A stretch of 11,863 bases of DNA from a virus. Lineage: Duplodnaviria > Heunggongvirae > Uroviricota > Caudoviricetes. How positions within the stretch are numbered: the first letter of the stretch is position 1; each line of letters opens with the position of its first letter. A program made the translations under genes and the position numbers. The notes beneath the pieces are model-generated. The model saw only the letters and a list, made by a program, of their open reading frames with translations. It ran no database searches and had not been told where the DNA came from. Positions 184-11,863 of the stretch are shown piece by piece. The stretch is from IMG/VR virus record IMGVR_UViG_2693429779_000014, positions 1-11,863 of that record; one strand, written 5' to 3'.

Positions 184-1266
184 TCATTTTCTCTGGCTGA
201 TCTTTACCGGATAACCATCCCGAAGATCAATTAAGTGCTCCGGTTCAGAAGCAAACCATGCATAAGATCCCCACGCCAATTCTGGTATTGCCTTTTTAAA
301 AGGCAGAGCACTTCTGTCCATAAATGCCGTAAGGAATGCAAGATTTTTCTCGCTGAACCCAGCGTCAATAGCCAAATGAGTGAGAGTAACTTTTCGTTCC
401 CTGTTTATAGGCCCATCTGTCGCAACTACTTCAGTGAAAACTACAAGCATGTCCGAACCCGTTCGGTCCTCTCCCAAATCAATCAAAATAATATCTGGAA
501 GTGCTTTTGAGGCATCAATATTCAGCCCCAATGCTTTTGCCAATACATCATCCTGAGCAACAACTTTATTCCCGGATTCAGACAACCAGAGCACAGTTGG
601 ATTCTTAAGAAAATTAGGAGCAAAAACTTCGATGACGGCCTTAGCTATTGTACTTGACGGGCCCGGAGCTAAAGTTCTCTTCTCTCCATTTGGGAAAGTG
701 ACGACTACGGCATCAGCAGCAATCACTGCCCCTGATTTCAATAAACGCAACCTAGCAAGAGCGGCTTTGTTCAAATGATTTTCTTGCCAGGAACTTATTG
801 CACTCAGCAGCGAATCTCCTTCAAGCCCGGCATCAAAGAGTGCTGCAAAAGAGCGATTCAAACTGTAACGAGGACGAGAGGATGTGGTGGGTATACCTTT
901 ACGCTCAACAATTGCATTGCAAGGTATTAGGCCATTTTTTATAGTTTCATCACGTATTGGCTCACGCGTATTTTCCGCATACCATGCATCAGCAGGCCTT
1001 ATCTTTTGTTTAGAGAAAGTCATCTTTACCCAGCTTTCTCTGGACGCATCATCAGTAAGAGCAGCCTGCGAATCTCCCATACTTACAACCTGGCTGGGCC
1101 TTATCCATCGCCCCAGCCCCTCAACCGCACCAGCATAAAACATGACAAAAATTGTTTTTGCAGCTATTTCCCGAATTAAATATCCACGATTCTCAGTCCC
1201 TTCAGGGAAAATTAATTGTAATCTTTCCCGGATAACATTCAATGGGGGAACAACAGGCAGATTCAT
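184..1266 (-). CDS. Unassigned 360-aa partner of the adjacent methyltransferase; putative restriction endonuclease-like protein (possibly BsuBI/PstI-like, not verifiable here)
   Basis: 360-aa minus-strand ORF. Its ATG (1266-1264) overlaps the TGA stop (1265-1263) of the upstream methyltransferase gene (ATGA), and a GGAG lies about 10 nt upstream inside the MTase 3' end. No catalytic motif can be assigned with certainty; the stretch DIILIDLGEDRTGSDMLVVFTEVVATD is compatible with a PD-(D/E)xK-type core. The functional call rests on operon context. Confidence 0.45.
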   Translation of the reverse strand: MNLPVVPPLNVIRERLQLIFPEGTENRGYLIREIAAKTIFVMFYAGAVEGLGRWIRPSQVVSMGDSQAALTDDASRESWVKMTFSKQKIRPADAWYAENTREPIRDETIKNGLIPCNAIVERKGIPTTSSRPRYSLNRSFAALFDAGLEGDSLLSAISSWQENHLNKAALARLRLLKSGAVIAADAVVVTFPNGEKRTLAPGPSSTIAKAVIEVFAPNFLKNPTVLWLSESGNKVVAQDDVLAKALGLNIDASKALPDIILIDLGEDRTGSDMLVVFTEVVATDGPINRERKVTLTHLAIDAGFSEKNLAFLTAFMDRSALPFKKAIPELAWGSYAWFASEPEHLIDLRDGYPVKISQRK

Positions 1267-3095
1267 GCAATCATCACTCCATAGAAACCAGCGATAGTTC
1301 TCTCAATAATCCGTCTGTGGACGCCAGCATCAATTAACGATTGAATCTCCATCACCTGCTCCAGAGAAGGCAACGGGATTGAATTCAATTCATAGGCCGA
1401 AACAGCAACACTTCCGCTTATACACCTGAACGCCCGATCGACAACATGCGAATTAAGTAGCATATCAATAACATCAGGGCGAACCGCAGAGAACAATCCG
1501 TTTGAATATACAATATTAATATGGTTTTCAACTACTACGCCACCAGTTTCATCTATAAATCCCTGAGGTAAAATTGCCGCTAAAATCCTTCTGTCCTGTT
1601 CCTTCGATGTTGTCCGCTGAACAAGCACACATTCAGATTTTGTCACAAGGAAACCCTGTTGTGGGGTTATATCGATATAGGGAACATGATTTTTTCTGTC
1701 TGCACTAAAACGAAAACCAGCTGAAGTTATTGATTCCGCCCAGACTAATGGGTAGCTATTTTTTCCTTTCGTCGTACGCAACTGCGACTTAAATCGATTC
1801 CAGACTAACTGACCTGTAGAGACTGAGTATCCCAGATCAGCTAAACGCGTAGACATCTGTTTTAATACATTAAGAAAACAGGCATCATCTTTAACGCGTG
1901 GCAAAAGCCACGTTGCTCCACCTTTTTCTATATCAACATTACCTATTTTCTCAATTTTTGCTTTGTTCAACCCCTTAGGGACAAGTGAGGATACCTGGGC
2001 CCGAACTTTATGTTCTCCCGCCTTGAATGCTGTCAACATTGTTTCCTGGAGAACATCGTCAAAGACCCCATCCCTGTCAGTGACGAAATCAAGGGCATAC
2101 GGAGTAGTTTTTTCGGTCAAAAGGGTTCGCAGCGCGGTGAAATACTGCCCACCAAGAAAAGAAGTTGGCGTAAGAAATGCAATAACTCCTGTTTTCTCTT
2201 TAACCATGCGAACAGCTAAGTCGGTGAACAATCCATATAGATTTGCATGACCAAATAACGAACGAGAATATTTTTCTCTCGTTTTAATATCGAGAGTGAC
2301 ACGTCCGTAAGGCGGATTCCCTACCACAAGATCATAACCAGAAAATTTATCTTGCTGAAGCGCATCAGCAACAATAATTGTATCTTCAGGCAATCTACGT
2401 TTTACCTTTACACATAGTGGCATTAGTACAGATTCGAGCAATACCAAACTCATCCAAGCCGCAAATGGATCGATTTCTATCCCCTTTAAACGACGACTGA
2501 TTCTCCTCAACATCCATTCAGGGGAAGACCCCTTGTCTTTTTTTAACATTCGAATGGCTACTGGTGCCAAAAATGCACCGCCACCACACGCAGGATCAAT
2601 AACCGATGCATGAGAAAAATCAACACCAGACTTTTCAGCCAGGTCCAAGAGACGCGCTACCAAAGGTGGGGGGGTATAGTAAGCCCCCAATTCCGAACGG
2701 TAAGCGGATGGCAGCATTACCGTATAAATTGACCCAATCAGATATCCAGCGTCCTCCGCCGGAAATTGAGCAATAAGCTCACCTGTTCGTTCAGCGAGCT
2801 CGCGTGCATCACATGGAATGTCTTCTATGTAAACAGTGTGCGGTACTGCCCTCATTTTAATGCTGCTTTTTTGCTTTTTTGCAAGGGTATCCCAATATGC
2901 AGCTACGATGCTGAAGCAGTATGAGCGGGCATGCATCAACCTTGACTGCCCGGTTTTGTAATTGCCCGCATAACCTTTGGCCATGGCTTTACAAGTTTGA
3001 TATCTTTCCAGATTAGAAAACTCATTATCTGTAAAAAAATCAAAATGTTGCACATTCATAATGTAAAATCCTAATGTATCAAACATGCGGGCCAT
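1263..3095 (-). CDS. N6-adenine DNA methyltransferase, gamma-class (Eco57I/TaqI-like catalytic domain with a C-terminal target-recognition region of about 250 aa)
   Basis: The translation carries GAYYTPP, then the SAM-binding motif I VIDPACGGGAFL, then the catalytic motif IV DLVVGNPPYG, in gamma-class order. The first ATG is at 3095; a better-placed start is the ATG at 3059 (MNVQHF...), which has AGGA 9 nt upstream. Confidence 0.85.
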   Translation of the reverse strand: MARMFDTLGFYIMNVQHFDFFTDNEFSNLERYQTCKAMAKGYAGNYKTGQSRLMHARSYCFSIVAAYWDTLAKKQKSSIKMRAVPHTVYIEDIPCDARELAERTGELIAQFPAEDAGYLIGSIYTVMLPSAYRSELGAYYTPPPLVARLLDLAEKSGVDFSHASVIDPACGGGAFLAPVAIRMLKKDKGSSPEWMLRRISRRLKGIEIDPFAAWMSLVLLESVLMPLCVKVKRRLPEDTIIVADALQQDKFSGYDLVVGNPPYGRVTLDIKTREKYSRSLFGHANLYGLFTDLAVRMVKEKTGVIAFLTPTSFLGGQYFTALRTLLTEKTTPYALDFVTDRDGVFDDVLQETMLTAFKAGEHKVRAQVSSLVPKGLNKAKIEKIGNVDIEKGGATWLLPRVKDDACFLNVLKQMSTRLADLGYSVSTGQLVWNRFKSQLRTTKGKNSYPLVWAESITSAGFRFSADRKNHVPYIDITPQQGFLVTKSECVLVQRTTSKEQDRRILAAILPQGFIDETGGVVVENHINIVYSNGLFSAVRPDVIDMLLNSHVVDRAFRCISGSVAVSAYELNSIPLPSLEQVMEIQSLIDAGVHRRIIERTIAGFYGVMIA

Positions 3096-3776: not shown

Positions 3777-4595
3777 ATGTGTCAGGTATTTGGTGTATCC
3801 AGGAGCGGTTATTACAACTGGGTACAGCATGAACCCTCAGACAGAAAACAAAGTGATGAGCGGCTAAAACTGGAGATTAAGGTGGCACATATCCGCACTC
3901 GCGAAACATATGGAACCCGGCGGCTCCAGACGGAGCTGGCAGAGAATGGCATCATCGTTGGTCGTGACCGACTGGCACGTCTTCGTAAGGAGCTAAGGCT
4001 ACGCTGTAAGCAGAAACGCAAGTTCAGAGCGACTACGAACTCGAACCACAATCTGCCAGTTGCGCCAAATCTGCTGAACCAGACGTTCGCTCCTACAGCA
4101 CCAAATCAGGTCTGGGTGGCGGACCTGACGTATGTTGCCACACAGGAGGGATGGTTGTACCTCGCTGGCATCAAAGATGTTTATACGTGCGAAATTGTCG
4201 GCTACGCCATGGGAGAGCGCATGACAAAAGAGCTGACAGGTAAAGCCCTGTTTATGGCGCTCAGGAGCCAGCGCCCACCTGCCGGGCTAATCCACCACTC
4301 TGATCGAGGTTCACAGTACTGCGCATACGATTACCGGGTCATACAGGAGCAGTCTGGTCTGAAAACATCAATGTCGCGTAAAGGTAACTGTTACGACAAC
4401 GCTCCGATGGAAAGCTTCTGGGGAACGCTGAAAAATGAGAGCCTGAGCCACTATCGTTTTAATAACCGGGATGAAGCCATCTCAGTAATACGGGAATACA
4501 TTGAGATTTTCTACAATCGTCAGCGTCGTCACTCTCGTCTGGGGAATATCTCCCCGGCAGCCTTCAGGGAAAAATATCATCAGATGGCTGCTTAA
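3777..4595 (+). CDS. IS3-family transposase OrfB (DDE integrase catalytic core)
   Basis: 272 aa from the first ATG; the frame is open from 3678, consistent with expression as an OrfAB fusion. Contains the D..D..E context (...VWVADLTYV..., ...HHSDRGSQY..., ...YDNAPMESFWGTLKNE...) and the C-terminal ...RQRRHSRLGNISPAAFREKY. Confidence 0.85.
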   Translation: MCQVFGVSRSGYYNWVQHEPSDRKQSDERLKLEIKVAHIRTRETYGTRRLQTELAENGIIVGRDRLARLRKELRLRCKQKRKFRATTNSNHNLPVAPNLLNQTFAPTAPNQVWVADLTYVATQEGWLYLAGIKDVYTCEIVGYAMGERMTKELTGKALFMALRSQRPPAGLIHHSDRGSQYCAYDYRVIQEQSGLKTSMSRKGNCYDNAPMESFWGTLKNESLSHYRFNNRDEAISVIREYIEIFYNRQRRHSRLGNISPAAFREKYHQMAA

Positions 4596-5008
4596 AAAAA
4601 GAACAAATGGTAGTGTCCGCTATTGCCAGTACACCTCATAGCTTCGCTCTTCCGGCACTCGCGACAGATTATATTCAGGCGCCTGTCGTAGCGGCGTATT
4701 TCTCCGTCTGGTAATGACCAGATAAGGTCAGGATCAACCACAACCGGTTTCTTCACCTTTACCCTCGATAGCTTTTTGCGGGCGTTTTGCCAGTCTTTAT
4801 GAGCCTGTTCAGAGGGAAATACCCCGTAGCCAGAATTATATACATCACCACTTGCGACCAGTTCTATGCATAAGCGACCGACAGACGCACGACTGATACC
4901 TGTTTCATCTGACAACTGCCGAATCGTGACCCGACCGTCCTGATGCACGAGTTCCACAATTCGCGTCTTCAGTTCTTCCCGCTGTTCGGGAGTAAAAGGT
5001 TTCGCCAT
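4592..5008 (-). CDS. Ren-like phage protein, copy A; 3' end altered next to the IS
   Basis: Starts MAKPFTPEQREEL... with AGGAGG upstream. Paralogous to the 5907..6389 ORF through ...DPDLIWSLPDGEIRRYDR..NIICRECRKSE, after which the two diverge. The ECRKSE region resembles the ECRQSAAMKRVL C-terminus I recall for lambda Ren (from memory). Confidence 0.5.
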   Translation of the reverse strand: MAKPFTPEQREELKTRIVELVHQDGRVTIRQLSDETGISRASVGRLCIELVASGDVYNSGYGVFPSEQAHKDWQNARKKLSRVKVKKPVVVDPDLIWSLPDGEIRRYDRRLNIICRECRKSEAMRCTGNSGHYHLFFF

Positions 5009-5022
5009 AAATCCTCCTGAAA

Positions 5023-5769
5023 CTACTTAACAACCCTCGAATGGCTAACATTCGGACGCCAGCTCTCCCAGTTAAAATTCACCCAGCGCCCGCCGTTCAT
5101 GACCATGCGATCCATCACCCGCTCGCCGAGCAATGTTTTCATCACCTCATAGTTCAGGTTTGTCAGCATCCCCACGCTGCGCATCGACGCTGTCCGGCGA
5201 TCAACAATCTGGTGCAGCACCACCTGCTCGTTTTTCGTCTCGCGCTGAATGCCAATTTCATCAAGAACCAGCAGATCCACTTCGCACAGCTCCCGCAAAA
5301 ATTTTTCGCCTGACTGCCCGTCGTCATAGCTGGCGTGCAGGGCGCTCATAACATCAGCCACGGTAACCACAATCACTGTCTGACCGTCTTTCAGCAGGCG
5401 ATTCCCGATAGCTGCCGCTAAGTGATTCTTCCCGGTACCAGGTTTTCCGCTGAACGCAAAATTTGTACACCCGGTCATCAGTTCATCGGCGATGGATTTC
5501 GCCTGGCTTAACGCGTATCGCTGGCCGTCGTTCTGCACCTGGTAATTCGCAAACGAGCATTTACGGTGCAACGGCTGGATGCCTGAGCGATTCAGAATTT
5601 TTTCCACCCGCAACTGGCGATTCAGGCGGTTGATCTCCTCGCTACGTTTCTGGCCTTCAGCAAGTTGCCACTCGCGCCACTCCGCTACCGTTCTGAATGG
5701 GGCGGTTACATGTGGCGGGGTCAGTCGGCGGATGCGTTCCAGAACGCCGCCTGTCGCAATATTTTTCAT
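5023..5769 (-). CDS. DnaC-like AAA+ helicase loader (phage replication protein), copy A
   Basis: 248 aa. Walker A FSGKPGTGKNHLAAAIG and Walker B DLLVLDEIG, with end-to-end collinearity to the E. coli DnaC sequence as I recall it (...NRSGIQPLH...CSFANY...MLTNLN...LGERVMDRM...). GGGGG-type SD upstream. Confidence 0.9.
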   Translation of the reverse strand: MKNIATGGVLERIRRLTPPHVTAPFRTVAEWREWQLAEGQKRSEEINRLNRQLRVEKILNRSGIQPLHRKCSFANYQVQNDGQRYALSQAKSIADELMTGCTNFAFSGKPGTGKNHLAAAIGNRLLKDGQTVIVVTVADVMSALHASYDDGQSGEKFLRELCEVDLLVLDEIGIQRETKNEQVVLHQIVDRRTASMRSVGMLTNLNYEVMKTLLGERVMDRMVMNGGRWVNFNWESWRPNVSHSRVVK

Positions 5770-5775
5770 GGTCCG

Positions 5776-6000
5776 TTACCCCCTGAAGCCTGGCGGGATC
5801 GCACTGTCCGGCAACGAGACGGTGTTAACCTGTCGGAGCAACGTCTCAGGCCGAACACCTTTCGGCGCGAACAGGCCCTGGTATTCATTGGCGATGCTGT
5901 GTCGAATCACCTGCTCAGGTGTAAAACCCTGCTGACGGAATTTTTCCAGTTCCCGTATCGCCCCGTTAGCGCCCTGCTCCGTTCGAATCGGTTTTCGCAA
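5776..6000 (-). pseudogene. 3' remnant of a second initiator gene (DnaT-like C-terminal domain only)
   Basis: The 74-aa frame ends ...VNTVSLPDSAIPPGFRG*, matching the C-terminus of the full-length initiator at 7905..8969 (...VNHISEPDTEIPPGFRG*). The N-terminal domain and iteron region are missing. It sits 6 nt upstream of DnaC-like copy A, the same spacing as in the intact module. Confidence 0.6.
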
Positions 6001-6389
6001 TGCCTGAGTACACGCTGCATAACTTCACTCTTCCGGCACTCGCGACAGATTATGTTCTGATGTCTGTCGTAGCGGCGTATTTCTCCGTCTGGTAATGACC
6101 AGATAAGGTCAGGATCAACCACAGATGGTTTCTTCAGATTTGCCCTTGAGAGTTTTTTGCGGGCGTTTTGCCAGTCCTTACGAGCCTGTTCAGACGGGAA
6201 TAACCCGTAGCCAGAGTTGTATACATCCCCACTGGCAACCAGCTCTCTGGCGAGAACGCTTATTAAATATCTTGTCGCCCCGGTTTTAGCTTCCAGTTGT
6301 CGTAACGTCTCGCGCCCACTCTGGCGTACGAGTTCAACAACCTGCCCCTTAATTTTTTCCCGCTCTTCCTGTGTAAATACTTTTGCCAT
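5907..6389 (-). CDS. Ren-like phage protein, copy B
   Basis: Start at ATG 6389 (MAKVFTQEEREKIK...), 15 nt after the upstream gene's stop. Contains ...ECRKSEVMQRVL..., but the frame then reads on into the initiator remnant with no stop until 5907, so the 3' end is probably not native. Confidence 0.55.
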   Translation of the reverse strand: MAKVFTQEEREKIKGQVVELVRQSGRETLRQLEAKTGATRYLISVLARELVASGDVYNSGYGLFPSEQARKDWQNARKKLSRANLKKPSVVDPDLIWSLPDGEIRRYDRHQNIICRECRKSEVMQRVLRHCENRFERSRALTGRYGNWKNSVSRVLHLSR

Positions 6390-6404
6390 AAGCGCCCCCG
6401 GCAA

Positions 6405-7130
6405 TCACTTTTCCGACACAATACGACCGGAGGAATCGACAATCTGTCGAACAATATCCCGGTGCTTGTTCAGCTCCCGCAACGCGGCGCAGACACGCTC
6501 CCACTTCTGGACATGACTTTTCGCCCGACGCAGTTCGCGGTTTGCCATATGCAGCGATGGTAAAACCAGGTCATCCGCTTGCGTTTCGGTGAACGATGGC
6601 AACGACTGCACAATGTCCGCCACAGTTTCTGTTTTAATTTCTTCCTGTGTTGCAGCTTCCTGTACCGGTAACGCAACACCTGCTGGCTGAGGAAAGACTT
6701 TACCATCCGTTTCCGCTATGGATGCGGCTTTCGGCTCTGCCGGTAAATCAGCGCCCGGTATGCAGTACCGAAATTTACCGCCCTGATTCACGCGAATCAG
6801 ACGCCCTTTGCTGATTGCCATGGCCAGCGATGAATTCGCCCGGCGGGAGGTAATCCCGAACATCAGTGCCAGCTCATCCGCCGTTTGTGGGCCATGTTGT
6901 TCAATCGCCTCAGTCAGCATTTGCGCTGTCACTTTCGGTACCGGTGACACTGGTTCACTTTCACCAGCCTGAATCAGCCACCACATCGAACCCTTGTTAT
7001 CCGCTTCACCACGGCGCTTCAGTTTCCACAGTTCGTTGACCGCATCTTCACGGCTGATTCCAAGGCGGGACGCCACCACATGTGAAGAGGCTCTTTTCAG
7101 TGCTTTCAGTGCGTCAAATACAGTTTCCAT
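6405..7130 (-). CDS. Hypothetical phage protein with two N-terminal winged-helix-like segments and an acidic linker
   Basis: The six-frame track starts at 7148 (TTG), but the ATG at 7130 ([12 protein letters not shown]...) has GGAGG 8 nt upstream. Two wHTH-like segments (...[24 protein letters not shown]... and ...[31 protein letters not shown]...). Lies between the DnaC-like and Ren-like genes. Confidence 0.6.
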
Positions 7131-7151
7131 TAAAACATCCTCCAACAAAAA

Positions 7152-7898
7152 TTACTTCACAACTCCCGGAAAGCTGACATTTGAACGCCAGCTATCCCAG
7201 TTAAACGTCACCCACCGACAACCGTTCATGGTCATGCGGTCCATAATCCTCTCACCAAGAAGCGTGCTCATTGCGGCATGATTCAGGTTTGTTAACATCC
7301 CGACACTGCACAGTGATGCTGTCCGGCGATCAATTATCTGGTGCAATACCACCTGCTCGTTTTTCGTCTCCCGCTGAATGCCTATTTCATCCAGGACCAG
7401 CAAATCAACCCCGCAAAGCTCCTGTAAAAATTTTTCACCGGATTTGCCGTTGTCGTAGCTGTCATGCAACACGCTCATGACATCAGACTCGGTGACGATA
7501 ATCACGCTGCGCCCCTTCGCCATCAGCCGGTTACCCATCGCCGCTGCAAGGTGATTTTTCCCGGTGCCGGTTTTACCGCTGAACACAAAATTCGTGCACC
7601 CGGTCATCAGTTCGTCAGCTATGGATTTGGCCTGGCTCAGCGCGTATTTTTGCCCGTCGTTCTGCACCTGATAATTCGCAAACGAGCATTTGCTGTGCAG
7701 AGGCTGGATGCCCGAACGATTCAGGATTTTTTCCACCCGCAACTGGCGATTCTGGCGGTTAATCTCCTCGCTGCGTTTTCGTCCTTCAGCAAGTTGCCAT
7801 TCCCGCCACTCCTCCACCGTCCGGTACGGTGGAACCGCCCCCTGTGGTGCAAGTCTGTGAATACGTTCAAGAACCCCGGCTGCCGCAATGTTTTTCAT
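7152..7898 (-). CDS. DnaC-like AAA+ helicase loader (phage replication protein), copy B
   Basis: 248 aa. Walker A FSGKTGTGKNHLAAAMG and Walker B DLLVLDEIG; about 85% identical to copy A at protein level but with many synonymous DNA differences. Starts 6 nt after the initiator stop. Confidence 0.9.
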   Translation of the reverse strand: MKNIAAAGVLERIHRLAPQGAVPPYRTVEEWREWQLAEGRKRSEEINRQNRQLRVEKILNRSGIQPLHSKCSFANYQVQNDGQKYALSQAKSIADELMTGCTNFVFSGKTGTGKNHLAAAMGNRLMAKGRSVIIVTESDVMSVLHDSYDNGKSGEKFLQELCGVDLLVLDEIGIQRETKNEQVVLHQIIDRRTASLCSVGMLTNLNHAAMSTLLGERIMDRMTMNGCRWVTFNWDSWRSNVSFPGVVK

Positions 7899-7904
7899 GC
7901 CACA

Positions 7905-8969
7905 TCACCCCCTGAATCCCGGCGGAATTTCGGTATCCGGTTCAGAAATATGATTCACACAACGCTGGTTGTTCGTGCCGCTTACCGGGAGCAACCAGGG
8001 GTTTTCAAAATTCCGGTCCGGCCCAAAAAACGTCGTCGCTCGCTGAACAAATTCCGTTCCCGCTTTCCCGGTCGCCGCCAGGTATCTCGCGTAACGCCTC
8101 ACACCATCCAGCATGGTCTCTGGTGGCACCCCCTCGCGCAATCTGGCCTTCCAGGCACTGAATGCGGATTTCTTCGGGTTTGCCCCGGCACGCAACGGGT
8201 ATTCCCGCCAGACCTGTTCGAACACATCCGGATAATCCACTCGTCCCACAGGCTGCCCGGTGTTTTCCGGGGCTACCCGATCGGCTTCCCGCTGAATGGC
8301 GGAATCGGCTTCAGGCTGCTGCAGTTGGAGTGATTGCTCCGGCCTTGCGGTCATCACCTGCTGCACAGCGCCCGAATCGGCTTTCAGCGCATACGCTGAA
8401 TCGGCTTCCGGTGTCGAGCCTGCTGGCTGACCAGGATTGACGGTCTGAACATCCCCTGCCTGGTTCGTGGCGTTTTTTACGCCATGGACCATAGTGTTTT
8501 GATCTTCTTTATCTGTATCTTTATCTGTATCTGTCGTGACTCGTCGTGACATGTGCGTGACATTTCGTGACGCGCCGTGACAATCGCCATTTTGTTCCCG
8601 CTTTCTTTCCCTCTCTCGCTGCGCCCTCTTGCGCTCTGCAGGAGATTTTGCGGTTTGCGAAATATTGCCGTTGTCCTCTTTAAGCACCTGGCGTTTTTCC
8701 CATCCAGTGATTAAATCACCATCAAGTACCCGCCCCTGCATCGTCTGCAAAATTGAATCAATTACCTCTTCTGTCACGTCGAGCGCACTTGCCAAATCTT
8801 CTGTCGTGACATCAATGTGACCTCGCGTGACATTTCGTGACGCGCTCACCAGGAGGTGGATATACACTGCCATCACTGTTGCAATTGGCTGCCCTGACAC
8901 CCTGGCAATTGTTCGCCACTTAGGGTCATTTGGCATGTCATGCCATAATCTGAGCCAGGCGTTAGCCAT
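7905..8969 (-). CDS. Phage replication initiator-like protein (YdaU-like N-terminal domain, low-complexity linker, DnaT-like C-terminal domain)
   Basis: The track starts at GTG 8975; the ATG at 8969 (MANAWLRLWHDMPNDPKW...) has GAGG 5 nt upstream. The C-terminus ...SEPDTEIPPGFRG matches the end of E. coli primosomal protein DnaT as I recall it. The gene body contains the iteron clusters listed below, and a DnaC-like gene follows immediately. Confidence 0.75.
   Translation of the reverse strand: MANAWLRLWHDMPNDPKWRTIARVSGQPIATVMAVYIHLLVSASRNVTRGHIDVTTEDLASALDVTEEVIDSILQTMQGRVLDGDLITGWEKRQVLKEDNGNISQTAKSPAERKRAQRERERKREQNGDCHGASRNVTHMSRRVTTDTDKDTDKEDQNTMVHGVKNATNQAGDVQTVNPGQPAGSTPEADSAYALKADSGAVQQVMTARPEQSLQLQQPEADSAIQREADRVAPENTGQPVGRVDYPDVFEQVWREYPLRAGANPKKSAFSAWKARLREGVPPETMLDGVRRYARYLAATGKAGTEFVQRATTFFGPDRNFENPWLLPVSGTNNQRCVNHISEPDTEIPPGFRG
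8535..8581. repeat. Iteron cluster 2: five direct CGTGAC repeats at 10-11 bp phasing, preceded by the tandem repeat TTTATCTGTATC x2 (8508-8531)
   Basis: CGTGAC begins at 8535, 8545, 8556, 8566 and 8576, all in the same orientation. The cluster is inside the initiator's linker-coding region. Confidence 0.55.
8805..8845. repeat. Iteron cluster 1: four direct (C/T)GTGAC repeats at 10-11 bp phasing, plus one inverted copy (GTCACG, 8773-8778)
   Basis: The repeats begin at 8805, 8816, 8826 and 8836. The 21-mer GCGTGACATTTCGTGACGCGC is exactly repeated at 8825-8845 and 8555-8575. Confidence 0.5.
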
Positions 8970-9040
8970 ACTCACCTCTTCTGATACCGAATCTTTTTAC
9001 TCACGAGTTGCCGGGAGCGATTCGATATGGCTATTGTCAG

Positions 9041-9466
9041 TCAATGTACTGCCACAGCATTTCCTGCCGGGCCACCACGGTTCATCTGATTGAAACCGGC
9101 GATTGCCACTGCGACAAAATCATCAGCGTCTCTCACCAGTCGTTCATGCGTCTCCACCAGTTCCCGAAAATAAGCTGAACTGTGGCTGCGCATTCGAGCC
9201 ACCAGCGGAGGTGGCATTGCCCTTTCGATCGCAGGTAACAACGCCTGAATTTTTTCAACAGCGTCAGGGGTGTCTTTATCCAGCCAACGGAAAATCTTTT
9301 GGGTGTTGAGATAAAGCGTGTTGTGCTTGCTGTCGTTATGCAGAACCGGAAACGTCATTCCCAGTTCGAAATAAACCCTGGTTATTTCAGCTGCCGGAAC
9401 TTTTTCACCGTCCGGATGCGCCCAGGCTTTCATCGCCATGCGGATGTGTTCATGCTTGATTTTCAT
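9041..9466 (-). CDS. YdaT-like protein (occupies the CII position after the Cro-like gene)
   Basis: 141 aa starting MKIKHEHI.... Its ATG overlaps the TGA of the upstream Cro-like gene (ATGA at 9463-9466). The position and order match the ydaS-ydaT-ydaU-ydaV arrangement of Rac-type prophages as I recall it. Confidence 0.55.
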   Translation of the reverse strand: MKIKHEHIRMAMKAWAHPDGEKVPAAEITRVYFELGMTFPVLHNDSKHNTLYLNTQKIFRWLDKDTPDAVEKIQALLPAIERAMPPPLVARMRSHSSAYFRELVETHERLVRDADDFVAVAIAGFNQMNRGGPAGNAVAVH

Positions 9467-9726
9467 GAATCAACCCCCGCCGATGGTTGTGTGTTAGCCT
9501 GAAACTCAGCAGGCAAGCCGTCAGTTGGGTTGGGGTAGGTTTTACTGTCAATCTCATGTGGGGTCACCACCCATCCCGTTGCTTCACACCAACGTAATAT
9601 TTTTTCTCCTGTAAGTTTTGCACGCCCCGTTATAACGTGGCTGACCATCCCTTGGGATGCGCCAACAATCTCAGCAAATGAACTCTGGGTTATATGAAAA
9701 TGATGCAAATATTCTCCAAGATTCAT
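9463..9726 (-). CDS. Cro-like / YdaS-like small HTH regulator
   Basis: The track starts at 9753 (TTG). The ATG at 9726 (MNLGEYLHHFHITQSSFAEIVGASQGMVSHVITG...) has GGGCGGA upstream. It shows an HTH pattern (SQ..A...G.SQ..VS) and is divergent from the repressor gene. Confidence 0.7.
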   Translation of the reverse strand: MNLGEYLHHFHITQSSFAEIVGASQGMVSHVITGRAKLTGEKILRWCEATGWVVTPHEIDSKTYPNPTDGLPAEFQANTQPSAGVDS

Positions 9727-9762
9727 AATCCGCCCTATGTGATGTGTTACCAATGCATAATT

Positions 9763-9825
9763 AATAGCACTGTTATTTTTAAAAGTAAATAGTGATGCTA
9801 TTTCAAAGTGATTAGCAATCTTATT
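9763..9825. promoter_or_regulatory. OR-like region: three operator-like 15-bp sites with divergent promoters
   Basis: Sites AATAGCACTGTTATT (9763-9777), AATAGTGATGCTATT (9788-9802) and a weaker ATTAGCAATCTTATT (9811-9825), spaced 24-25 bp. Rightward promoter candidates: -35 TTTCAA (9801-9806) and -10 TAGAAT (9825-9830). Leftward candidates: -35 TTTACT (complement of 9784-9789) and -10 TATTAA (complement of 9761-9766). Confidence 0.5.
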
Positions 9826-9837
9826 AGAATTGGATGT

Positions 9838-10338
9838 ATGAAAAGAAAATCATTGTCAGACACCGACCTCAACGCCGCCAGAAGACTGAAAGAAATCTGG
9901 ATGGCAAAGAAATCTCAGTTGGGATTGACTCAGGAACGTGCGGCGGAAATTATGGGGTTTTCAACACAAGGGGCGGTAAGTCACTACCTAAATGGTCAAA
10001 CCCCACTAAACCTTGAGGCTGTTCTAAAGTTTGCTGGCTTACTGAAAGTTCCCCCTGAGTCAATCAGGCCAGACATGGTAGATTTGCTGCAAATTGCAAG
10101 GATGTATTGTCGAGAACCACAGCAAGATAACATAGTCGCATTACCAGCAGACACAGAACAAACAGAGGATGAACTACCGTTTGCCGTAGAGCCGATGGAA
10201 CGAGATTTAATCCATACGTTCAGAGCTTTTCCGAAAGAAGATCAAGAACACATGCTTCAGGAGATGAAAGATAAAAAAGAATCAATGGATCGTACGGTTG
10301 CGCGGTGGTTAGCTGCACAAAAAGGCCGTCGCGCCTAA
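9838..10338 (+). CDS. cI/PaaR-like HTH (XRE-family) repressor; candidate prophage immunity repressor and regulator of the downstream toxin-antitoxin pair
   Basis: The track starts at GTG 9808; the ATG at 9838 (MKRKSLSDTDLNAARRLKEIWMAKKSQLGLTQERAAEIMGFSTQGAVSHYLNG...) gives 166 aa. It has an N-terminal HTH (LTQERAAEIMGFSTQGAVSHY), is divergent from the Cro-like gene, and carries an acidic C-terminal region. Confidence 0.7.
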   Translation: MKRKSLSDTDLNAARRLKEIWMAKKSQLGLTQERAAEIMGFSTQGAVSHYLNGQTPLNLEAVLKFAGLLKVPPESIRPDMVDLLQIARMYCREPQQDNIVALPADTEQTEDELPFAVEPMERDLIHTFRAFPKEDQEHMLQEMKDKKESMDRTVARWLAAQKGRRA

Positions 10339-10357
10339 ATCAGAGGAGATATGTAAA

Positions 10358-10552
10358 ATGAGTACAGTCCTTTCCCCAATGGTTTCAGAATTTGAGACAG
10401 TTGAGCAAGAAAATAGTTACAACGAATGGCTGCGGGCCAAAGTAGCAGCAAGCCTCGCGGATCCCCGCCCGGCGATTCCGCATGATGAGGTAATGGCGGA
10501 AATGGAACAAATTATTGCCCAAATTGCTGCTGCAACTCACAGAGGTGAATAA
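10358..10552 (+). CDS. Small antitoxin, PaaA2-like (partner of the ParE-family toxin)
   Basis: 64 aa with GAGGAG 7 nt upstream. The stop overlaps the toxin start (TAATG at 10550-10554). The sequence ...SPMVSEFETVEQENSYNEWLRAKVA... resembles the PaaA2 antitoxin of E. coli O157 prophages as I recall it. Confidence 0.6.
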   Translation: MSTVLSPMVSEFETVEQENSYNEWLRAKVAASLADPRPAIPHDEVMAEMEQIIAQIAAATHRGE

Positions 10553-10842
10553 TGTTACCCGTTTTATGGCTACCATCTGCTCGTGATGATTTGCGCCAGA
10601 TCGTAGCCTACATAGCTAAAGAAAATCCCGCGGCAGCACGCAGAATGAAAATTCGAATTGAAACATCCGTTTTGCCGCTCACAGAGCATCCTTACCTGTA
10701 TCCTCCAAGCGAGCGAGTTCTTGGTCTTCGTGAAATTGTAACTCATCCTAACTACATCATCCTTTACCGAGTAACAGCATCAAGCATAGAAGTAGTAAAT
10801 ATTGTGCATTCTCGAAGACAGTATCCAGGCAAAAACAGTTAA
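10552..10842 (+). CDS. parE: ParE/RelE-superfamily toxin (ParE2-like)
   Basis: 96 aa with the characteristic pattern W.P.A..DL..I..YIA..NP.AA......I......L...P..G.......GLREIV.....I.LYRV......V..I.H.RR. Translationally coupled to the upstream antitoxin. Confidence 0.8.
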   Translation: MLPVLWLPSARDDLRQIVAYIAKENPAAARRMKIRIETSVLPLTEHPYLYPPSERVLGLREIVTHPNYIILYRVTASSIEVVNIVHSRRQYPGKNS

Positions 10843-10858
10843 TTATTCCCGCCGACAG

Positions 10859-10884
10859 AACCACCTTAGGGTGGTTTTTTCTTG
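10859..10884 (+). terminator. Intrinsic (Rho-independent) terminator of the repressor-antitoxin-toxin operon
   Basis: Stem AACCACC (10859-10865), loop TTAG, stem GGTGGTT (10870-10876), then a T-tract (10877-10880), 17 nt after the ParE stop. Confidence 0.7.
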
Positions 10885-10898
10885 CCCCAACAAAAAAC

Positions 10899-10940
10899 AA
10901 TAGCGATGCTATTTACATCAAAAAAAATAATGATGCTATT
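10899..10940. promoter_or_regulatory. OL-like region: two operator-like 15-bp sites with a candidate rightward promoter
   Basis: AATAGCGATGCTATT (10899-10913, a perfect AATAG-N5-CTATT palindrome) and AATAATGATGCTATT (10926-10940), spaced 27 bp. A -35-like TTTACA (10912-10917) overlaps the first site, as at the OR-like region; the -10 is not clear. Confidence 0.45.
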
Positions 10941-11121
10941 GTTTCAGGCGTCAACCCACCCCGCCCCACAGAATGCAGGGCAATACTTCGAGTTACCAGA
11001 CAGTGGTCAGGGGTTAAGTAGCCAGCCCGAGGCGTAAGAACATGACGGCAGGGTTCAATCTTTAACTATGCAGCAGGTTTTTTGTTCCGCCACCCCGGCG
11101 TTAAGGGGAAATGAGGTCAGC

Positions 11122-11274
11122 ATGGATACTATCGATCTTGGCAACAACGAATCTCTGGTGTGCGGCGTGTTCCCTAACCAGGATGGAACGTTTACCGCCA
11201 TGACGTATACCAAAAGCAAAACGTTTAAAACCGAATCTGGCGCGCGTTGCTGGTTAGCCAGAAACACTGACTGA
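11122..11274 (+). CDS. Hypothetical small protein (50 aa), first gene of the candidate early-left operon
   Basis: ATG at 11122 with GAGG 5 nt upstream (MDTIDLGNNESLVCGVFPNQDGTFTAMTYTKSKTFKTESGARCWLARNTD). The track's longer version (11068) lacks an SD. Confidence 0.4.
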   Translation: MDTIDLGNNESLVCGVFPNQDGTFTAMTYTKSKTFKTESGARCWLARNTD

Positions 11275-11285
11275 TGAGGCTGACG

Positions 11286-11651
11286 ATGGAATTTAAAGAT
11301 TTACCGTCTGATGTACAGAAAACAGCAGCTCATACATTGCATTCTGTGCTGCGAGAAATCGGGAAAGATATTGCAAGCGAGCCAGCAAAAGATCTGGCCC
11401 GGAAAATCAAGACCGCTTTCGTTGAGCTTTATAATGTTGGCACTGACTCTGAAACTGTCGAGACCAAGACCGTAAGTTCACCAATATTCTCACTTGAGCC
11501 AAGCGTATTATCAGGTGAAATATGCACCGAGATTTCCAGCGAACTGCTTCCGGTAATACGAGAAGCAATTCGCCGTCGCGGTTTGGATGGAAGTTATGAT
11601 CATGACGTTCTGCAAGTTCTCAGGACAATGGTGACTTCACTGGGGATTTGA
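11286..11651 (+). CDS. Hypothetical protein (121 aa)
   Basis: ATG at 11286 (MEFKDLPSDVQKTAAHTL...) with GAGG 6 nt upstream, 9 nt after the stop of the upstream small ORF. No family recognised. Confidence 0.5.
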   Translation: MEFKDLPSDVQKTAAHTLHSVLREIGKDIASEPAKDLARKIKTAFVELYNVGTDSETVETKTVSSPIFSLEPSVLSGEICTEISSELLPVIREAIRRRGLDGSYDHDVLQVLRTMVTSLGI

Positions 11652-11863
11652 TCCCTGCGTCCTCTAAGCTTTTGATATAGCGGTCCTCCAAGAAGCGGTA
11701 AATTTTGTCGAAATCATCTTTTCCCTCTGGTTTATTCAGAGGATTACAGGACCCGTAAGTAGCGGCATACATTTCAACCGTTTGGTAATGACTCCAACTT
11801 ATTGGTAGTGTTTTATGTTCAGATAATGCCCGATGACTTTGTCATGCAGCTCCACCGATTTTG

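Follow-up and report, generated by a model that had tools for sequence, protein, structure and literature searches.

Repeats behind a repressor-antitoxin-toxin operon as probable distal operators of a lambdoid immunity region in a Shigella sonnei-type prophage

Results

Gene organization of the window

The window, that is, the whole 11,863-nt stretch of DNA analyzed here (IMG/VR virus record IMGVR_UViG_2693429779_000014), contains in its right third the immunity region of a degraded lambdoid prophage (Table 1). Positions 7338-11779 are 99.95% identical to an independent Shigella sonnei contig (L017). The left end (184-3095) is occupied by a restriction-modification pair on the minus strand, with a restriction endonuclease gene of the BsuBI/PstI type (184-1266) and a methyltransferase gene of the Eco57I/N6 type (1263-3095), and an IS3-family transposase orfB without its upstream partner is found at 3777-4595. 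A DUF977 gene (4592-5008 and 5907-6404, approximately 88% identity) and a DnaC/IstB-like ATPase gene (paralogues at 5023-5769 and 7152-7898, approximately 79% DNA identity) are each present twice, in tandem (4592-5769 and 5907-7898), which suggests recombination between two prophage replication modules. The gene at the position of a replication initiator has no Pfam match; its counterpart in the relatives L002 and L004 encodes a DnaT-domain protein. At the right edge, an IS1 end (11784-11863, starting at about 11784) cuts the rightward operon approximately 130 bp past the 125-aa open reading frame (ORF). Because the IS1 end, the IS3-family fragment, and the duplicated replication genes indicate a degraded prophage, the immunity circuit may be partly vestigial.

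Table 1. Coordinates of the features in and around the immunity region of the window
Feature	Position	Strand	Remarks
Gene at replication-initiator position, 356 aa	7905-8975	-	No Pfam match
YdaT-family gene (CII analogue)	9041-9466	-	
YdaT (CII-analogue) type inverted repeat	9456-9473		TTGATT-N6-AATCAA at ydaS/ydaT junction; exact match, 0.07 expected by chance
cro-like (YdaS-position) helix-turn-helix gene, 87 aa	9463-9726	-	HTH_3, E = 4e-4
Intergenic region between cro-like and repressor genes, 111 bp	9727-9837		
Putative upstream operator, distal from repressor gene, AATAGCACTGTTATT	9763-9777		Overlaps -10 of leftward PR-like promoter; position and arms kept in all related loci
Putative upstream operator, middle site, AATAGTGATGCTATT	9788-9802		Overlaps -35 of leftward promoter; abuts -35 of repressor promoter
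Candidate third upstream site, ATTAGCAATCTTATT	9811-9825		Three arm mismatches; in spacer of repressor promoter
Predicted PRM-like promoter	9802-9830	+	TTCAAA-17-TAGAAT; -10 ends 7 nt before repressor ATG; conserved in relatives
Putative immunity repressor gene, 166 aa	9838-10338	+	Lambda CI-like N-terminal domain and DicA/PaaR2-type C-terminal domain
PaaA2-family antitoxin gene, 64 aa	10358-10552	+	PF21217, E = 3e-23; 77% identical to L001 antitoxin
ParE-family toxin gene, 96 aa	10552-10842	+	PF05016, E = 2e-17; 67% identical to CP-933P ParE2
Intrinsic terminator of repressor-antitoxin-toxin operon	10857-10883	+	Hairpin 10857-10878, core ACCACC-TTAG-GGTGGT; U-run to about 10883
Putative downstream operator 1 (OL-like), AATAGCGATGCTATT	10899-10913		Perfect arms AATAGC/GCTATT around 3-bp centre; 3' end overlaps -35
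Predicted PL-like promoter	10912-10942	+	-35 TTTACA 10912-10917; TG 10934-10935; -10 TATTGT 10937-10942 (TGcTATTGT 10934-10942)
Putative downstream operator 2 (OL-like), AATAATGATGCTATT	10926-10940		Two mismatches in left arm; 3' end overlaps -10
Predicted non-coding leader, about 170-173 nt	10952-11121	+	Shine-Dalgarno GAGG 11113-11116
ydfA (DUF1391), first gene of rightward operon	11122-11274	+	PF07151, E = 1.5e-28; annotated ydfA in relatives
125-aa ORF, second gene of rightward operon	11274-11651	+	97.7% DNA identity to phage mEp460_ev081

The 166-aa protein encoded divergently from the cro-like gene is 100% identical to a Shigella sonnei protein. In phmmer searches against the PDB, its residues 2-81 matched the N-terminal domain of lambda CI including the N-terminal arm (1lmb, 1rio, and 3bdn; E = 3e-9 to 1e-8, with 3e-9 for 1lmb), and its Pfam matches were HTH_3 and HTH_31 only. 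Over its last 44-64 residues, the protein shows 52-56% identity to PaaR2 and to a PaaR-type paralogue, and the C-terminus matches the C-terminal part of the DicA family model; a search for a solved structure of this C-terminal domain found none. Pfam detected no S24/LexA-like self-cleaving C-terminal domain in the protein, and thus RecA-mediated self-cleavage is not expected. The -10 hexamer of its predicted promoter ends so close to the ATG that a leaderless repressor mRNA is predicted; a leaderless mRNA has been demonstrated for paaR2 by 5' RACE and N-terminal sequencing. The homology to lambda CI, the divergent cro-like gene, and the PRM-like promoter together support, at the level of sequence, the earlier proposal that this protein is the immunity repressor.

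The cro-like protein has no similarity to the YdaS protein of prophage CP-933P, and thus it varies together with the operators. At the junction of this gene and ydaT lies an inverted repeat that matches the published recognition motif of YdaT, the role of which has also been described (PMC9986795); in CP-933P, a PRE-like promoter activated by YdaT is located between ydaS and ydaT (PMC8630535). On the other side of the repressor gene, the antitoxin gene follows after a gap of 19 nt and overlaps the toxin gene at an ATGA junction, and a single terminator stands behind them (-15.1 kcal/mol, z = -2.7; conserved in relatives). With a regulator gene of its own ahead of a PaaA2-family antitoxin gene and a ParE toxin gene in one operon, the block has the layout of the three-component PaaR-PaaA-ParE module (Hallez 2010; Jurenas 2021).

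Operator-like repeats on both sides of the repressor operon

The inverted repeat AATAGC-N3-GCTATT occurs twice between the cro-like and repressor genes and twice behind the toxin gene, and the two clusters are approximately 1.14 kb apart. With up to three mismatches to the pattern, seven strand-matches were found in the 11.9-kb window, which correspond to these four sites and one match with three mismatches at 4637. Shuffled windows gave 0.26 matches on average, and none of 200 reached seven. When only the 12 arm positions were counted, three sites had at most one mismatch (0.013 expected) and five had at most two (0.47 expected). Chance is therefore excluded as the origin of the repeats.

The sequence-only reading of this DNA had described the downstream pair as two more copies of a 15-bp palindrome, located just after the operon terminator, so that operators would bracket the repressor-antitoxin-toxin block. 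The two copies are indeed there, immediately past the hairpin and U-run, and the bracketing was found again as motif clusters in the window and in 11 other loci. The term palindrome, however, applies only to the arms; the 3-bp centre is not palindromic, and the second copy departs from the arms at two positions.

The centre-to-centre spacing is 27 bp in the downstream pair, versus 25 bp in the upstream pair. The position of the candidate third upstream site, 23 bp from the middle site, recurs in relatives, which gives a weak hint of a third operator; this site could be an OR3-like autorepression site. The window and the S. sonnei contig differ at only two places over 4,442 bp, and one of these falls within the middle upstream operator (GATGCTATT vs GATACTATT; L017 2451-2465).

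Co-variation of the operators with the repressor type

Close DNA relatives of this immunity type were found in two of 5,426 complete E. coli genomes, and these are 99% identical to the window. Since near-identical DNA says nothing about conservation, we examined loci with repressors of 47-90% identity, which were collected by repressor similarity from a protein database and by exact-protein lookups; a scan of species-representative genomes found no repressor relatives. The loci were searched for AATAGC-N3-GCTATT with at most two arm mismatches. In 11 other loci, which represent seven distinct repressor variants with N-terminal domains of 47-99% identity, the motif is likewise clustered both ahead of the repressor block and behind it, as two sites plus two. 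In the most distant locus (L012, 47% identity), two plus one sites were found at this threshold and the fourth is one mismatch worse; all four have shifted together to AATA(C/T)C.../...(A/G)(C/G)TATT. The two sites are spaced by 25 bp in the intergenic region of the cro-like and repressor genes and by 25-26 bp past the repressor block, and there were no other matches in these loci. Across the loci the arms are conserved and the central 3 bp vary freely, as expected for operators of helix-turn-helix dimers.

The cargo between the operator clusters varies. PaaA2-ParE is found in E. coli, E. albertii, and Shigella, and HigB-HigA in a Salmonella locus with this operator family (L012 3112-3839); in two metagenomic loci (L013 3287-4860 and L014 2298-3871), HipA_2, DUF3037, and two small genes occupy the slot and the clusters are 3 kb apart. 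Conversely, the operator scan did not find the motif in L001 or in CP-933P (L003), which have the toxin-antitoxin family, YdaT, and leader of the window with a different repressor N-terminal domain. These two repeat operators of their own on both sides of the block, and a matrix of shared 8-mers is diagonal by immunity type, that is, the similarity of upstream and downstream operators is type-specific. Because the sites are kept with different cargo and are absent where PaaA2-ParE stands beside other repressors, they follow the repressor DNA-binding domain and the cro-like protein, not the toxin-antitoxin pair. The interval that separates the repressor gene from the distal operators resembles a general docking or exchange site for addiction or defence cargo (ParE, HigBA, or HipA-like), as for rexAB in lambda.

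A predicted rightward promoter at the downstream pair

Downstream operator 1 merges at its 3' end with TTTACA or TTGACN in all related loci, and downstream operator 2 merges at its 3' end with TATTGT, ahead of which there is a TG; 10 loci have conserved promoter hexamers. At the upstream pair, the leftward promoter (TTTACT-17-TATTAA, minus strand; -35 at 9789-9784, -10 at 9766-9761) lies in the same geometry relative to its operators. Our promoter scan recovered TTTACA-17-TATTGT with an upstream TG in the 99% identical relative L002. In the window it did not call the rightward promoter, because the scan accepts spacers of 16-18 bp and the spacer here is 19 bp, versus 17 bp in relatives. The difference lies in the A-run between the downstream operators (10918-10925). 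The window and the independent S. sonnei assembly have A8 at this place, and E. coli L002 and L016 have A6; with A8 the promoter spacer is 19 bp instead of 17 bp, and the operators are 27 bp apart instead of 25 bp. The A8 run may be a promoter-down slippage mutation. In sigma-70 promoters, a 19-bp spacer should lower the strength; where a TG extends the -10, promoters with such a spacer can still function. Thus, the predicted promoter may be weak or inactive in the S. sonnei copy, and the 27-bp operator spacing may disturb cooperative binding.

As a positive control, the scan recovered TTGACT/TAAACT at both PL933P and PR933P of CP-933P, in agreement with the report that the hexamers of the two promoters are identical (PMC8630535). 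By position, the predicted promoter of the window is the equivalent of PL933P. The sequence-only reading had predicted a repressor-controlled, rightward PL-like promoter with a transcription start at 10945-10960; the hexamers found over the operators agree with such a promoter, possibly a weak one, and would place its start at about 10948-10950.

Leader and rightward operon

Between the predicted start and ydfA lies a leader that, in alignments, hardly varies among heteroimmune prophages. In an alignment of eight loci, the sequences of heteroimmune types are homologous from CAACCCACCCCGCC on (about 10952 in the window), a point that is 10-13 nt past the -10 hexamer in every immunity type. The operators and promoter would therefore lie within a swappable immunity cassette and the transcript body outside it, and the cassette appears to end essentially at the predicted transcription start. 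Of 5,426 complete E. coli genomes, about 4,400 contain DNA that matches the leader part of the window; phage vB_Apl-pPE4 carries a copy of 75% identity.

The leader gave no Rfam match at E <= 1, and its minimum free energy is no better than that of shuffled sequences (z = +1.2). RNAalifold found no covariation among nine variants including the 75% identical phage copy (covariation term +0.73; one of 33 pairs compensatory). A coding function was rejected, as there is no in-frame start past the promoter and the TTG-initiated ORF at 10882-11037, which begins ahead of the promoter, loses its frame in a relative through a 1-nt indel. A put-like antiterminator of the HK022 kind was also considered and discarded, as the leader has no similarity to the HK022 cI-nun intergenic (putL) region. 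At the level of Rfam, putL similarity, and N-like ORFs, then, no N/nut or put-type antitermination element was detected past the promoter. Somewhat speculatively, and with little expectation that it is correct, we suggest that the leader could be an undescribed cis-acting RNA, such as a Rho-loading or attenuation site or a protein-independent antiterminator, that would act as a gate on elongation or translation ahead of the ydfA-dicB/kil early operon, which is toxic; the Rho-loading or attenuation option is suggested by the C-rich 5' end (ACCCACCCCGCCCCAC). If this is true, the element would add a second safety layer over repressor control.

In the window, ydfA is followed by an unrelated 125-aa ORF, for which no family match was found, and then by IS1; L002 and L016 have ydfB, ydfC, and dicB.

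Discussion

Comparison with known immunity regions

Jurenas et al. (2021, mBio; PMC8630535) showed that PaaR2, YdaS, and YdaT are the CI, Cro, and CII analogues of CP-933P (Sp12 of E. coli O157:H7). In that prophage, PL933P adjoins parE2 and has three operators, and GFP fusions showed approximately 100-fold repression by PaaR2 or YdaS (PMC8630535). The gene order of CP-933P is that of the window, namely ydaT, the cro-like gene, operators, a leaderless repressor gene, PaaA2, ParE, second operators with an outward promoter, and the leader; the identities are 77% for YdaT, 67% for ParE, and 52% for the repressor C-terminus. In both, the promoter is 10-11 nt from the conserved leader and the repressor lacks an S24 cleavage domain. 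The differences lie in the specificity elements. The N-terminal DNA-binding domain of PaaR2 is unrelated to that of the window repressor, which is detectably homologous to lambda CI; the operator repeats of CP-933P are of the GTTTAGTAA type instead of AATAGC-N3-GCTATT, and the two are therefore heteroimmune; and YdaS is unrelated to the cro-like protein of the window. Only the last 44 residues of the window repressor align with PaaR2 (52% identity), that is, we found neither full-length orthology with PaaR2 nor shared operators. Furthermore, ydfA is kept in the window and lost in CP-933P.

In the Qin (Kim) prophage of E. coli K-12 (dicC / dicA / dicBp-ydfABC-dicF-dicB), operators on both sides of dicA and the repression of dicBp, with ydfA as its first gene, by DicA have long been established, and a 22-fold rise of dicBp upon deletion of dicA re-confirmed this in 2023 (PMC10448788). 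As in the window, the repressor gene is flanked by operator clusters and the promoter at the distal cluster has ydfA as the first gene. DicA is not cleaved through RecA but is relieved by an antirepressor, and the C-terminus of the window repressor matches the DicA model. Unlike the window, Qin has no toxin-antitoxin pair between the repressor gene and the distal operators, has a different N-terminal domain and operators, and shares the leader only partly (from about 11084 on). The absence of dicF and dicB from the window is explained by the IS1 insertion.

With lambda, the window shares a homologous repressor N-terminal domain, divergent PR and PRM with a leaderless repressor mRNA, adjacent operators approximately 24-25 bp apart, and a cargo (rexA-rexB in lambda) that is co-transcribed with the repressor gene and ends before the distal operators. 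In contrast, lambda CI has an S24/LexA-like C-terminal domain, which the window repressor lacks; the lambda operators are of 17 bp with three distal ones, whereas those of the window are of 15 bp with two distal ones; the N gene and nutL follow the lambda promoter and are not recognizable in the window; and the role of CII is taken in the window by an unrelated YdaT-type protein. Only two downstream sites were detectable in the window, whereas three are reported for each of lambda, Qin, and CP-933P.

A model for the downstream repeats and its alternatives

Divergent repressor and cro-type genes with repeated operators over both promoters, together with a second cluster of the same operators past the repressor operon and over a predicted outward promoter, were all found in the window, and these are the hallmarks of a lambdoid immunity region. 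Judging from the sequence, we consider it very probable that the two repeats (10899-10913 and 10926-10940) serve such a region, in a Shigella sonnei-type genome, as its distal (OL-type) operators and that the 166-aa repressor silences a rightward early operon through them. Dimers of the repressor would bind AATAGC-N3-GCTATT at both clusters, and the divergent cro-like protein very likely would bind these sites too. Transcription from the leaderless PRM-like promoter would cover the repressor and PaaA2-ParE genes, the latter filling the slot of rexAB in lambda, and would stop at the terminator before the operators. As the downstream sites overlap the predicted -35 and extended -10 elements, occupancy by the repressor would silence the early operon, whose transcript would start near 10949 and run through the conserved leader into ydfA and the genes beyond, which in intact relatives are ydfB/C, dicB, and an exonuclease gene. 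By analogy with the known systems, we infer binding, repression, looping, and promoter strength at the window sites. A DNA loop may bridge the two clusters, because the related PaaR2 forms octamers; for the window repressor, the analogy lies in the shared C-terminal domain, which is short (44-64 aa).

The chief or sole role of the downstream pair could instead be that of a remote anchor to which repressor oligomers bind, so that looping to the upstream cluster tightens repression of the leftward lytic promoter and tunes autoregulation, with no functional local promoter under its control in the Shigella copy. We regard this as unlikely, although the 19-bp promoter spacer and 27-bp operator spacing in both the window and the independent S. 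sonnei assembly, versus 17 and 25 bp, would fit it, as would the truncation of the downstream operon by IS1. However, the promoter hexamers are intact and conserved across relatives, a promoter with an extended -10 TG can work even with a 19-bp spacer, and looping and local repression are compatible with each other. Octamerization of PaaR2 and the OL-OR looping of lambda (PMC8630535) speak for an anchor, but the homologous PL933P and dicBp are active, repressible promoters (PMC8630535, PMC10448788).

Another, clearly less probable explanation is that the sites are operators of a promoter on the minus strand (leftward; TTGACG-16-CATTAT, 10954 to 10927) giving an RNA antisense to the toxin-antitoxin genes. 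The scan scored this sequence as a 9-of-12 match in the window and in L002, and its -10 lies inside operator 2. Nevertheless, promoter-like matches in this region are at the level of shuffled sequence (three found, 3.2 expected), the hexamers are not kept in relatives with the same operators (L008, L010, and L004), and the geometry does not mirror that of the promoter at the upstream pair. It is harder still to believe that the repeats are autoregulatory sites of a PaaA2-ParE complex, as their place flanking the toxin-antitoxin operon might suggest, or chance or decayed repeats. The shuffle and arm-mismatch counts exclude the latter, and as for the former, the sites follow the helix-turn-helix type of the repressor, being present with HigBA or HipA-like cargo and missing where PaaA2-ParE adjoins other repressors; in addition, PaaA2 has no DNA-binding domain (PMC8630535). 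The reading as distal operators over an early promoter is thus the one that we prefer.

Significance

The bracketed layout of the immunity region is already the published model for the CP-933P/Qin prophage family, and in this respect the finding is correct but ordinary; the current understanding of lambdoid immunity regions is unchanged. What is new here is the allele only, that is, the operator sequence, a cro-like protein unrelated to YdaS of CP-933P, and a hybrid repressor of lambda CI type and DicA-PaaR2 type. An operator motif, a promoter map, and an immunity specificity can now be assigned to a repressor type labelled in databases only as "helix-turn-helix domain-containing protein"; thousands of E. 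coli assemblies contain a relative that is 78% identical. The architecture of CP-933P and Qin, with a repressor and addiction cargo inside two operator clusters and a repressed early operon beyond them, extends in this way to a further heteroimmune group. For Shigella sonnei, the analysis predicts which cryptic-prophage genes would be silenced by the repressor, and the 2-bp change in the A-tract is flagged as a possible further weakening of the S. sonnei promoter.
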